A stretch of DNA of 64,000 nucleotides from Patescibacteria group bacterium (GTDB taxonomy: Bacteria; Patescibacteriota; Minisyncoccia; Phycocordibacterales; UBA918): positions 14,078-78,077 of the forward strand of contig JAIEOU010000005.1 of assembly GCA_019750255.1 (NCBI GenBank), written 5' to 3'. The position numbers and the translations under genes are program-made. Every line of letters starts with the position of its first letter. The stretch's first letter is position 1. Below the pieces are notes generated by a model, which was not told where the DNA came from, searched no databases, and saw only the letters and a list, made by a program, of their open reading frames with translations. Below, in pieces: positions 23,296 to 62,632 of this stretch.

Positions 23296-23533
23296 TATGA
23301 GCTGGGATACAGGGATTCGAAAAGCGCAGCAATGTGAGGAGCTTTTACTAAAGCGACGAACCAGCGAGCTGGGGTCGAGAGCACTTACTAGAATTGGAGC
23401 GTCAGCGAACAATTATAGTTAGTGACTCGTGACCGAATCCCTGTATCCCAGCTCGAGTAAAACACCCGTCAGGGTGCTTTTACGTAGTGCTGGGATACGT
23501 AAGGTCTGGGAGACCTTGCGTCAGGGATTCGAA
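23296..23533 (+). repeat. tRNA-end-bracketed structured element (Gln copy) plus start of a second cycle
   Basis: Antisense tRNA 3' end 23296-23321 (26/26), core 23322-23433, sense copy 23434-23454, interrupted antisense copy 23489-23533. Confidence 0.88.
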
Positions 23534-45431: not shown

Positions 45432-45780
45432 CAAGTATGATGATCGCCCTTTCTTCGTAAGAAGGTGGGGAGGAAAGTCCGAACACGTCCTGGGTGACCA
45501 GGAGTAGGGTAGCGGGTAACCCCCGTCCGCCGCGAGGCGCGAGGTGCGAACAGAGACGCCCAAAGTGAAAATGATGGGCTTCCTTCGTAAGAAGGAAGAG
45601 TCGTCACGGTAACGTGTCGGGTGAAACGGCAAAATCCTTACCTACGTGCAAGGCCGTGCTATCGGTAACGGCGGCAACGCCCGAACTGATAGAGAGCCGC
45701 TTGAGGGTGATGGTAACATCATTCCTAGGTATATGATCATCCTGTACGCATGTGCAGACAGAATTCGGCTTATATACATG
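45432..45780 (+). ncRNA. rnpB: RNase P RNA
   Basis: Universal GAGGAAAGUCC (45470-45480) and ACAGAAUUCGGCUUA (~45758-45772); TATAAT upstream, terminator downstream; ends approximate. Confidence 0.95.
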
Positions 45781-45865
45781 AAACGCTGCGCCACTTAAGG
45801 CGCGGCGTTTCTTTTGTGATAAAATAGTATCCGTACTTTATCAAGTAGCGTGGCGTGATTTATAT

Positions 45866-54476: not shown

Positions 54477-54549
54477 GCTTGGGTAGCTCAGTTGGTAGAG
54501 CATTTCCCTGAAGAGGAAGGGGTCGCCGGTTCGAGCCCGGCCCCAAGCA
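54477..54549 (+). tRNA. tRNA-Phe(GAA)
   Basis: gcttggg/cccaagc acceptor; tttcc-ctGAAga-ggaag. Confidence 0.93.
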
Positions 54550-54578
54550 CAAGAAAAGCGCCTTCGGGCGCTTTTTGC

Positions 54579-55119
54579 GTGCTTGGGGCCGGGCGTGAAG
54601 GGGGTCGGGGAAACAGTTGTTTCCCCGTGGAGGAAGGCAGTGAGCGACGTTAGGAGCGAGCGTTGGAAAACCGTGGGTTTCCAAAGTGCCTGGGCCCTAA
54701 GCTATATTACAAACTAATGCACCTTTCGTCCGGGCTCGAACGCCGGAGCGTTGTCACGAGCGTGCTTCCTAGCGCGAGTGATCACGAGGCGCGTCCAGCG
54801 GTCGTAATGACCGTAGCGTGAGAAGTGAATAAATGTCACTTCGCAAGACTCATTGAGGCACTATATGAGCGGTAGCGAAATATAGAACCCAATGAGTGGA
54901 CAGCTTCTGTAAGAAGTTAGAAAAAGCGGGACGAGCCCGGCCCTAATATGTAACCAAGCCCTGGATTGCTTCGTTGCGACTCGCAAAGACGAGGACCTCG
55001 CCGAGTGGAGGTCGAGCGAGTGAGATAGATTGTGAGCGAAGCTAAACAAAGTATGCACAAGAGTGACCGAGCCCGGCCCAACATTCTCGTGGGTTTCCAA
55101 AGTGCCCAGGCCCGAAGCA
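54579..55119 (+). repeat. Nested array of tRNA-Phe-end-bracketed structured elements
   Basis: Antisense 3'-end copies 54579-54594 and 54730-54741; sense copies 54932-54943 and 55068-55079; 19-nt direct repeat 54672-54690 / 55088-55106. Confidence 0.82.
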
Positions 55120-60417: not shown

Positions 60418-61263
60418 TTAGAGGAAGGTAAAGGGGAGGTCGTTAAACGTGGCGACGCGGATACTGGCCGCATGTTTGTGTCCACCTGCGTTATATTTTT
60501 CGGCGATTGCTCCGACGTCTATATCACCTTCGCTCCGCAACGAAAGGTGAACCGCACCGCCATAATGATAGTAGACAATACCAAGGGGGATTCTTCCTTC
60601 GGCTGCATTGAGCTTTGCGAGGTGGTGACCGACAATTGACCGGTGTGGTCGAGCTATATTAACGGCGTACACTTCATGGCCTTCAAAAAGCACACGTTCA
60701 CGATAGGTAAGAAGTTCAAGAACGAGGGCGTCAGAAACTTTTGCAGCGGTGGTGCCGGTGGTGACACATTGTCTAAATTCCTGATCGTCTTCTAGTAGTG
60801 TCGCGAGCTGGTCCCAGCGTTCAAAGGATACAGGCTCGAGTGCGACGGCGGCGTTTATTTCGCGGTTATATGGCAGTACAAATTTCCATAAGTCGTGGTC
60901 TTCGACGTAGGTGAGTAATCGGGGAACTGGAGTGTTGGGATGGAAATAACGCCAGGCAAGGACCGCTCCAGAGTGGTCTAGGTCGAAAACGTTTTCAGAA
61001 AAAGCAGTGACGGCTGACTGCGCAGTTGCGTGATGGTCAATGACGACCATTGATTTGTTTACCGAACGTAGCCTGGTAAGTGTCGGAAGGTCAAAGCTGT
61101 AATCGACGACGTAAAGTTCCTTTTCAGTAATTCCGTCCGGCAGGGGTGCTTGTGTCTTCTGTGGTATATAGGTGGCAGTGTCACCAAATTTTTTCCAGGC
61201 TGCAAAGGCAGCACCGAAACCATCTTTACATTGGTCGTGGTAGATAATGACGATGTCTTTCAT
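60418..61263 (-). CDS. DHH/DHHA1 family phosphoesterase
   Basis: YH..C.DG, IDHH, SLRS, GGHKHAA. Confidence 0.9.
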   Translation of the reverse strand: MKDIVIIYHDQCKDGFGAAFAAWKKFGDTATYIPQKTQAPLPDGITEKELYVVDYSFDLPTLTRLRSVNKSMVVIDHHATAQSAVTAFSENVFDLDHSGAVLAWRYFHPNTPVPRLLTYVEDHDLWKFVLPYNREINAAVALEPVSFERWDQLATLLEDDQEFRQCVTTGTTAAKVSDALVLELLTYRERVLFEGHEVYAVNIARPHRSIVGHHLAKLNAAEGRIPLGIVYYHYGGAVHLSLRSEGDIDVGAIAEKYNAGGHKHAASIRVATFNDLPFTFL

Positions 61264-61361
61264 TAGTACAGGGTAGCGCGTAAGTGAGTGGAGTCAAGGA
61301 AGGGTGCGGGACTCGACCCGCAATCGCGGATTTTGTTGCGTCTTTAAGAGTAATTATTTAC

Positions 61362-61504
61362 GGACTCGGTCACGAATCACTAAGTATATTTGTTCGTCTG
61401 CGACTCCAAATCTACTAAGTGTTCTTGACCACGGCTCACTGGTTCGTCGCCCAAGGGAAGGGGCGACTCACATCGCTGCGCCTTTCGAGTCCTGTGTCGC
61501 GCAC
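61362..61504 (-). repeat. tRNA-end-bracketed structured element (Val copy)
   Basis: Inverted tRNA 3'-end copy 61484-61504 (20/21); core homologous to 23322-23433; short sense T-arm copy 61362-61368. Confidence 0.88.
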
Positions 61505-61553
61505 ATAAAGCAAAGAAGGGTCATGCTGTGCATGACCCGACTTATTGCTTTAG

Positions 61554-61626
61554 TGCGCGATACAGGACTCGAACCTGTGACCTCCACAATGTCAATGTGA
61601 TGCTCTACCAGCTGAGCTAACCGCGC
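61554..61626 (-). tRNA. tRNA-Val(GAC)
   Basis: Reverse complement cloverleaf; tcaca-ttGACat-tgtgg. Confidence 0.95.
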
Positions 61627-61840
61627 AAATGTGTCCACGATGGTAGCATAATAAATAAGGCACGTAAAACCAGAGTAAGCGGTCAGGACTGGGTTTGTCG
61701 GGGTCCGAAAAAAGTCACCTTAACATCGAAACCTCGATGGATTATGAGAGGTGTGGCTAAGAATTGATATTTTTTATTCACCAGTACTGGCACAAGAACA
61801 GCTCGTTTCACTCTTTGTCTTGATATAATAGAAATGCATT

Positions 61841-62632
61841 ATGATTCGTTTACCGCATCCGTTTCTTCGAGGAATGATCGCTGGTATTTTTGTTATCGCA
61901 TCAGGCCTCGCTTCGGTTAGTACATTTAATTTTGCCCGTACCGGCGAGGCGTGGCAGCAGTGGCAAGCAGGAAGACTGAGTGCGTCTAGTTTCTATTTTC
62001 AGCGCGGCAATTATTACTTTGGTGGTACAGAATATGACGTTGATAAGGCGCTTGCCAGCTTTGAAAAGGCGCTCAGGTACGATAATGTTCATAATGACCC
62101 GATTAGATATCAGATCGGCAGGGTTTATTTTATTAAAGGCGATTTAACGAAAGCGCTCAGCGAGTTTGATGCGCAGCTCGCGGAGGATCCGGACTATGTG
62201 AAGGCATATTATATGCGCGGTCTCACCTACGGCTACCGGCATCAGTTTAAACAAGCTGAAGAGGATTTTTTACGGTATATAGAAGTCGTGCCAGAGAGTT
62301 GGGCAGCGCATAATGATCTTGTCTGGGTGTACTTTCGCTCAGGTCAGTATGAGAAAGCAGAAAAATACGCTCGGGCGGGATTACAATTTGCTCCGGGTAA
62401 CGCCTGGCTCTCTAACGCGCTTGGAGCAATTTTAATTAATCAGAAGCGCTACGCTGAAGCTAAAGAGCCTTTAGAGGTTGCCTTGGCCGGGTTTACTGGT
62501 ATGGGAGCGGAAGGATGGGGAGTTGCCTATCCGGGTAATGACCCGGCGATATACCAGCAGGGCTATGAAGCATCTGTTAAATCGGCAGAGGACAATTTGC
62601 GAGTAGTGCGGGAGAATGTAGAAGTCGAGTAA
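61841..62632 (+). CDS. Membrane-anchored TPR protein
   Basis: N-terminal hydrophobic segment, several TPR repeats (AYYMRGLTY, LSNALGAIL). Confidence 0.88.
   Translation: MIRLPHPFLRGMIAGIFVIASGLASVSTFNFARTGEAWQQWQAGRLSASSFYFQRGNYYFGGTEYDVDKALASFEKALRYDNVHNDPIRYQIGRVYFIKGDLTKALSEFDAQLAEDPDYVKAYYMRGLTYGYRHQFKQAEEDFLRYIEVVPESWAAHNDLVWVYFRSGQYEKAEKYARAGLQFAPGNAWLSNALGAILINQKRYAEAKEPLEVALAGFTGMGAEGWGVAYPGNDPAIYQQGYEASVKSAEDNLRVVRENVEVE

Follow-up and report, generated by a model that had tools for sequence, protein, structure and literature searches.

The stretch of DNA that follows the tRNA-Val(GAC) gene is a partly eroded member of a real repeat family, whose copies share a protein-less core of about 115 nt made up of two hairpins and, in this genus, occupy tRNA genes and ftsZ at their 3′ ends. 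We favor, with a probability of roughly 55%, the reading that this copy is the now-fixed insert of a small site-specific mobile element, which would have split the tRNA gene at its T-loop, brought its own replacement for the last 19–21 bases of the gene, and relied on an inverted copy of this gene end to find or hold its target. The copy lies in the window, i.e., the whole 64,000-nt stretch of DNA that was analyzed, and belongs to a genome of 950 kb (99.9% complete, 16 contigs).

All parts of the unit lie on the minus strand and are described here in the direction of the tRNA. The tRNA-Val(GAC) gene (61553–61626) is intact (ARAGORN; Rfam tRNA, 68.5 bits), and its last 19–21 bases, from the T-loop to the end (61553–61573), constitute the proximal sense arm, termed X. 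The following 48-nt spacer (61505–61552) forms the top of a long palindrome and carries a terminator-like hairpin, GGGTCATGC-ACA-GCATGACCC (61518–61538), which is followed by a T-rich tail and flanked by partly complementary A/T-rich stretches. The spacer leads into the inverted (antisense) arm, termed X′ (61484–61504), which is the reverse complement of the last 21 bases of tRNA-Val at 20 of 21 positions, extends to the T-loop TTCGA, and has its start in the gene 2 nt upstream of that of the sense arm (−21 versus −19). Then come the conserved core of 115 nt (61369–61483), which ends in GTGAC and is recognized by an nhmmer profile (E = 3.4e-24), by the covariance model R1 (103 bits), by covariation, and by its fold, and the distal sense arm CGAGTCC (61362–61368), whose 7 nt are identical to the tRNA from T-loop position C56 on. 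In a single strand, X and X′ are able to pair as inverted attachment copies with a hairpin between them, at 20 of 21 positions behind tRNA-Val and perfectly behind tRNA-Gln. The predicted single-strand fold of the Val element has an energy of −57.6 kcal/mol (z = −4.55), and none of 200 shuffled sequences folded as well.

Much of this anatomy had been proposed in a sequence-only reading of the window, which our analysis bears out: the inverted copy was recovered by local alignment, the nested hairpin between it and tRNA-Val was found at the same place and also in a terminator scan, and the distal sense arm matches the tRNA over 7 nt only. The reading had also linked this copy to the one behind tRNA-Gln. 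Both cores do end in GTGAC, followed by CGAGTCC at Val where the Gln copy has CGAATCC, and the alignment of the Val core with the Gln core (23322–23433) scores 101 against a shuffle mean of 14.3 (s.d. 2.2, maximum 24), with 0 of 1000 shuffles reaching 101. When the entire downstream stretches of the two copies are aligned with MAFFT, the mean column identity is 80%.

The shortness of the distal arm had been put down to decay or truncation, a view that is plausible but incomplete, as a remnant of a second element and a second copy of the tRNA end lie beyond the arm. Positions 61317–61361 (minus strand) are probably the eroded 3′ remnant of an element with another core type, by virtue of a weak resemblance between their last 22 nt and the tRNA-Leu(TAA) element's 3′ end (score of 22 versus a null of 12.2; 1 of 1000 shuffles). 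A search with the remnant motif returned six matches in the genome versus 3.65 in shuffles, and the matches linked to an element are only those at Val and Leu(TAA). At about 61304–61318 (minus strand), GGGTCGAGTCC and CGCAC, with some 7 nt absent between them, make up a second partial sense copy of the tRNA end, which is weak when taken alone, its 11-nt match being equaled by 4 of 1000 shuffles; it is likely the displaced original 3′ end of the tRNA-Val gene. Based on such short matches, the locus resembles a stack of two units, of which the inner is intact and the outer would be eroded. Having a distal arm of 7 nt, the Val copy has probably lost the ability to leave. On its far side, the insertion site is bounded by a gene of 281 aa with a borderline DHHA1 match (60418–61263, minus strand), whose ATG is located 289 nt from tRNA-Val in the source genome, and no gene fits in the ~290 nt that separate the two.

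An iterated nhmmer profile detected 30 copies of the core in the source genome. As many as 22 of them lie at most 353 nt downstream of, and in the same orientation as, a tRNA gene, thereby occupying 16 of the 41 tRNA genes, while simple arithmetic gives a chance background of ~0.8% of strand-specific positions so placed. When all core types are considered, an inverted copy of the gene's own end lies downstream of 19 of the 41 tRNA genes (18 with an exact inverted match of at least 10 nt, and Val with 20 of 21). The units are flanked by direct copies of the gene end, 7–31 nt in length, and have the general layout gene end X, variable hairpin, X′, core, and X again, where X′ is often split by a second small conserved hairpin. 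Truncated core copies and stacked arrays also occur in this genome. The elements make up a large share of the scarce non-coding DNA of these ultra-small bacteria and, in the source genome, stand behind ~40% of the tRNA genes.

In the rest of the genus, the covariance model R1 finds the core in 37 of 40 genomes, with 0–25 copies each, whereas an evenly drawn set of 150 genomes from the phylum yielded it in only 4. Twenty high-scoring copies from six other genomes were picked regardless of their context: 16 of them lie 47–277 nt behind a co-oriented tRNA, two behind ftsZ, and two behind other genes. The notion, already put forward in the sequence-only reading, that the core is common to the loci and the arms are locus-specific holds at Val, at Gln, at the 16 tRNA genes of the source genome, and in 16 of the 20 copies sampled elsewhere. 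At gathering scores, Rfam 15 matched tRNAs and RNase P only in the entire window and returned nothing for the core; with E values up to 1, the region 61250–61650 gave the tRNA and a chance antisense match on it, and again nothing for the core. The RNase P RNA is of the bacterial class A type (45432–45784, plus strand, 132 bits). Full-text literature searches, conducted at the level of abstracts, did not return a description of such elements.

Variation around the core was observed at further loci. Within the window, tRNA-Phe (54477–54550) is followed, ~190 nt downstream, by an inverted copy of the T-arm and by a weaker copy of the same core (54730–54836, plus strand; C12:68818–68913), and sense copies of the tRNA end are present still further downstream. 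A small hairpin, AG(C/A)AAGC...GCTT(G/T)C, recurs across species and tRNAs immediately ahead of the inverted arm, namely at the loci L037, L047, L048, L049, and L052 of relatives and at Trp and Gly(TCC) of the source genome (G000). The hairpin that precedes this motif and the arm that follows it differ, so that conserved parts of the element are interleaved with locus-specific ones.

The core is composed of a 5′ domain, with a short closing helix, conserved internal loops, and a variable covarying hairpin, and of a long 3′ hairpin. In 43 distinct copies, 97.9% of the cells are paired, versus 26–38% in slid-partner controls, and 19 of the 22 pairs show compensatory change, a result that 0 of 500 shuffles reach; the alignment behind these counts was fitted to the model, which favors pairing, and the genomes are kin. 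An independent MAFFT/RNAalifold treatment of 13 copies found compensatory change in 15 of the 22 pairs. The core contains 24 G-U or U-G pairs versus three A-C or C-A pairs, and this excess assigns the fold to the tRNA-sense strand, whether in the form of RNA or of single-stranded DNA.

A fold of this kind could also belong to a resident functional RNA, whose structured core would be transcribed with or after the tRNA, closed by X′ and X, freed by the tRNA-processing enzymes, and not mobile. Such an RNA would account for the strong covariation and the G-U excess on the tRNA-sense strand as well as for the constant co-orientation with the gene, and, where the arms include the T-loop, the X′/X helix would be predicted to mimic the acceptor/T-stem stack. 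It accords poorly with the terminator-like hairpin that stands between gene and core, with the free decay of the distal X, which would be the closing partner and of which 7 nt are left at Val, and with the copies described below that lie inside the ftsZ reading frame and have a spare gene end. The range of 0–25 copies among congeners, the truncated copies, and the stacked arrays also speak against it, as do the presence or absence of the unit and the different core types at one orthologous locus. We consider a resident RNA improbable and retain the reading of an inserted mobile element.

This orthologous site consists of tRNA-Val(GAC) followed by the DHHA1-like gene. The comparison of the tRNA-Val locus across congeners, which had been proposed from the sequence, revealed both presence or absence of the unit and variant core types. 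The site is empty in G002, G016, and G022, where the ATG comes ~3–12 nt after the tRNA and no hairpin is seen, and it is filled in others, in G020 by a unit of the same core type as here whose arm is split, in G021 by a short variant, and in G007 by another core type. The empty sites of three congeners and the other variants of three more indicate that the element has been gained or lost here. In public metagenome contigs of four runs, compared over 60800–62400, one run matches without any difference, and the contigs of a second study contain the 3′ part of the element and the X′-hairpin-tRNA part. No contig of the four runs joins across the element and no empty allele was seen among them, which is uninformative either way, as contigs drop rare variants. 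None of the 13 public runs listed as holding the locus is on record as RNA. In runs from other studies (X3, X9, and X10), the summed contig depth rises 3- to 20-fold over the 3′ hairpin of the core (61340–61450) and over the tRNA (61553–61626), with many loose contig ends at 61437 and 61549–61553; this pattern fits the presence of many related copies in other contexts in those communities.

The two arms of the element have fared differently. In 11 loci of the T-loop class, X′ matches the tRNA at 225 of 232 aligned nt and the distal arm at 130 nt in all; this measure of the distal arm covers only 45 nt beyond the profile match, so that more remote arms, such as that of Cys, escape it. The match of X′ exceeds that of the distal arm in 10 of the 11 loci and equals it in one, and in four loci the distal arm matches only at chance level. 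A near-perfect X′ beside a poor distal arm implies that X′ is selected or continually corrected against the gene, and that the distal copy is a scar. Instead of being kept for a function, X′ could be maintained by intrastrand correction of the long palindrome.

In addition, X′ crosses the joint. In nine of the 12 scorable units, its start in the gene lies 2 nt upstream of the distal arm's start, and seven more units with arms of 3–4 nt agree. This offset is common to both junction classes, that of the T-loop (−21 versus −19) and that of the acceptor end (−5 versus −3), and it is present in five of seven readable ftsZ junctions. The right junction of the element itself has AC at these two positions, so that the sequence complemented by X′ is that of the uninterrupted chromosome or of the left junction, not that of the element's junction.

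The ftsZ lineage provides a view of the gene ends as coding sequence. The 3′ end of the core, GTGAC, followed by GTN CCN GCN TT was found at 20 junctions in 16 of the 41 genomes of the genus, versus none for a reversed-pattern control in the same 41 genomes. The upstream ORF of one such locus encodes FtsZ (FtsZ_C, E = 2e-15), and the insertion point is placed directly before the last 11 codons, VPAFLRRSKLK-stop. The copy of the source genome is located on contig C6 (C6:22658–23110, L068; relatives within L066–L085), and G007, G191, G201, and G202 have two ftsZ core junctions each. One of the 20 junctions was set aside, as its distal copy was possibly compared with itself, and in eight of the 19 usable ones the distal arm still encodes VPAFLRRSKLK-stop. 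These eight intact distal ends differ from their proximal counterparts at 2–13 of 36 nt, with a total of 63 differences and no amino-acid change. Since the copies differ only synonymously, each has been selected as a working gene end, and one of them came in with the element. The two X copies of the ftsZ members have separate histories as coding sequence. In this lineage, X′ matches the synonymous codons used by the respective genome itself.

Insertion is site specific, affects the 3′ part of the gene, and supplies a replacement end in the ftsZ members. At tRNA targets, the two X copies must be identical, so that the origin of the tRNA-Val end rests on the analogy with ftsZ; by this analogy, the 3′ end X of tRNA-Val was likely supplied by the element. 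A duplication or triplication of the target site at insertion, by hairpin fold-back or template switching, was also envisaged, and it is ruled out by the eight of 19 ftsZ distal arms that are intact and synonymously diverged. Copies located behind arbitrary genes would suit arms created anew from the target at every insertion, but the ftsZ data rule such arms out; most likely, each target-specific lineage of the element passes on its own arms. In genome annotations, the duplicated ftsZ ends and "tRNA fragments" of these bacteria would be junction scars and not pseudogenes.

These properties can be assembled into a model in which the unit would move as one strand, the tRNA-sense strand. This strand would be opened between GTGAC and X and joined into the top strand of the target just upstream of X. 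Being complementary to the uninterrupted target across the insertion point by 2 nt, X′ would act as the complementary strand, a guide or splint, for the new left junction and would align the 3′ end of the target with the X of the element. The old gene end would be pushed behind the core and would then decay. The variable hairpin between X and X′ may be the element's own or the gene's own terminator. For strand exchange, the model borrows from CTX-type and integron recombination (PMC3442271, PMC4792948) and, for base-paired target reading, from IS608 (PMC5934647, PMC3201880).

The same parts could make up a folded single-strand attachment site for the Xer-type tyrosine recombinase of the host, of the CTX-phage or integron-attC type. 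The X/X′ pair of a free single-stranded circle would then mimic a double-stranded target, one pair of strands would be exchanged, replication would finish the process, and X′ would serve the fold of the element itself and not target recognition. The order seen here, X, hairpin, X′, body, X, is also that of an integrated CTX-type element; the strand-specific fold of the core, the persistence of X′ while the distal X decays, and the one Xer-like recombinase of the genome are also in line with it. A single-strand exchange between phage ssDNA and host dsDNA is described in PMC3442271. However, where X′ extends 2 nt beyond X, it fits the chromosome rather than the element's own junction, the targets are tRNA ends and ftsZ and not the dif site, and no common recombinase-binding sequence is evident among the arms. 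We regard an Xer attachment site as unlikely for this family and continue with the reading in which X′ finds or holds the target.

Three enzymes of the source genome are candidates: its only Xer-type tyrosine recombinase, a RAYT-like HUH protein, and a single large serine recombinase. Neither position nor a clean phyletic pattern ties any of them to the cores in the source genome and 40 congeners, and the only tyrosine and only serine recombinase genes of the source genome lie on another contig than the Val locus. The tyrosine recombinase scores 79 bits against the integron-integrase model (cut-off of 265) and higher against the XerD and XerC models, and an integron integrase was not found in the source genome.

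The serine recombinase, a Ccr/XisF-like protein of 528 aa, is encoded outside the window (C16:127027–128613, within the locus C16:126860–128624, L035). Its gene is flanked by GC-rich inverted repeats of ~115 bp that take in, at their outer ends, the last 4 nt of tRNA-Glu(CTC), and the ORF overlaps this tRNA gene, on the other strand, with its own 3′ end. If the units were non-autonomous double-stranded mini-islands moved in trans by this enzyme, the 2-nt offset would be the crossover dinucleotide, a 2-nt stagger being a hallmark of serine recombinases. The gene at tRNA-Glu(CTC) shows the same layout of gene end and inverted copy, and such genes are present in 31 of 40 congeners. Yet the dinucleotide before the distal arm is AC and not that of the target, so that the right junction is not the product of a serine recombinase, and a strand-specific G-U excess would be unexpected for a purely double-stranded site. 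Across the 40 congeners, moreover, the number of serine recombinase genes does not track the number of cores: G009 and G021 have 17 and 15 core copies and no Resolvase-domain match, and G014, G192, and G206 have 0 core copies, yet 1–7 such genes. Mobilization by this recombinase seems to us a doubtful explanation.

The RAYT-like protein (225 aa; C9:10200–10877, i.e., L057:1300–1977) carries an HUH-type motif and matches Y1_Tnp with 32.9 bits (cut-off of 23) and, weakly, the model of REP-associated tyrosine transposases with 33.9 bits (cut-off of 80); similar proteins of 200–300 aa occur singly in many congeners. It could in principle spread the cores as REP/REPIN-like repeats, the arms being by-products of template switching at the palindrome, and the cores, like REPs, are located at gene ends. 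Core counts follow Y1 proteins only loosely: in genomes with a completeness of 90% or more and a contamination of 5% or less, which are kin and not independent, the 15 with a Y1_Tnp match have 8–25 core copies, and eight of the 14 without have six or fewer. On the other hand, five genomes without a Y1 match have 12–24 core copies, and no core flanks the RAYT-like gene itself (best E = 0.14 with model R1, filters off, in 3.2 kb around the gene). Since template switching cannot yield intact gene ends that have diverged synonymously, we consider such an origin very improbable and the arms to be parts of the element, as proposed above.

Other known systems were considered as well. An IS200-type transposase appears unlikely as the mother element: the genes of relatives adjoin cores at only two of eight loci inspected, both in one duplicated segment. 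In G202, two of the three IS200-type copies are ~160 nt from a core, both in this segment, and no core was found within 3.5 kb of the third copy nor of the copies of G007, G009, G201, G203, and G017. The segment, of ~2 kb (L058/L059), contains the transposase gene, a core, a 135-aa ORF, and a tRNA, and has two copies that mirror each other, one of which takes up a whole 3.3-kb contig; the arrangement represents either a segmental duplication or an assembly redundancy. A TnpB/IscB omega-RNA, a retron, and an IS110 bridge RNA were set aside, as searches of the 99.9%-complete genome with the models of TnpB-type proteins (PF07282), reverse transcriptases (PF00078), and IS110-type transposases (PF01548) gave no match.

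More tentatively, the family may represent a class of gene-less mobile elements of ~200 nt whose target is written in a short exchangeable inverted arm, with nucleic-acid-guided, site-specific single-strand insertion by a host enzyme. The class would comprise lineages for tRNA T-loops, for tRNA ends, for tmRNA, and for the ftsZ frame, each with a spare gene end that lets the host survive. If this were true, they would be the smallest known elements that integrate into and repair essential genes. Their anatomy, a folded core and an arm complementary to the uninterrupted target across the joint, would point to target choice by base pairing, and they would be of interest for the biology of ultra-small bacteria and for programmable DNA insertion.

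Among known systems, the islands and prophages of tRNA and tmRNA genes (PMC4383910) share with the present elements a target that is split and regenerated by element sequence and a displaced fragment at the far end. The corresponding features here are the intact tRNA-Val with its sense fragments at 61362–61368 and ~61304–61318, and the eight of 19 ftsZ distal arms that are intact. The junctions are likewise at the T-loop or the acceptor end, and the two gene ends of ftsZ differ only synonymously. Williams is said to have distinguished, in 2002, three sublocations of integration in tRNA genes, and phage 21 and e14 reportedly provide a spare icd end. Unlike such islands, the unit described here measures ~190 nt, has no integrase or other gene, combines a folded core that is conserved with an additional inverted target copy reaching 2 nt across the junction, and stacks in arrays.

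The CTX-phage type of IMEX and the attC sites of integrons (PMC3442271, PMC4792948) resemble these elements in their inverted attachment copies, short loop, strand-specific structure, and likely one-way integration. They differ in that the targets here are tRNA T-loops or ends and ftsZ codons, not dif or attI, with neither phage genes nor a cassette ORF. IS200/IS605 elements (IS608), their gene-less derivatives, and REP/RAYT systems (PMC5934647, PMC3201880, PMC5027513) have in common with them hairpins near the ends, a single-strand logic, recognition of the target by base pairing with a short internal sequence, and abundant non-autonomous copies. Here, in contrast, the complementary arm measures 8–21 nt rather than 4 nt, no transposase is linked, and a direct repeat of the target flanks the element and the gene is rebuilt, whereas IS200/IS605 elements insert without target duplication. 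The bridge RNA of IS110 (PMC11208160) is similar as a structured non-coding part that carries target-matching segments; it differs in that the present genome has no IS110-type transposase, the arms are much longer, and no donor loop is evident. By analogy with these systems, the family would work most like a tRNA-integrating island shrunk to ~190 nt, equipped with a folded core and a target-complementary arm.
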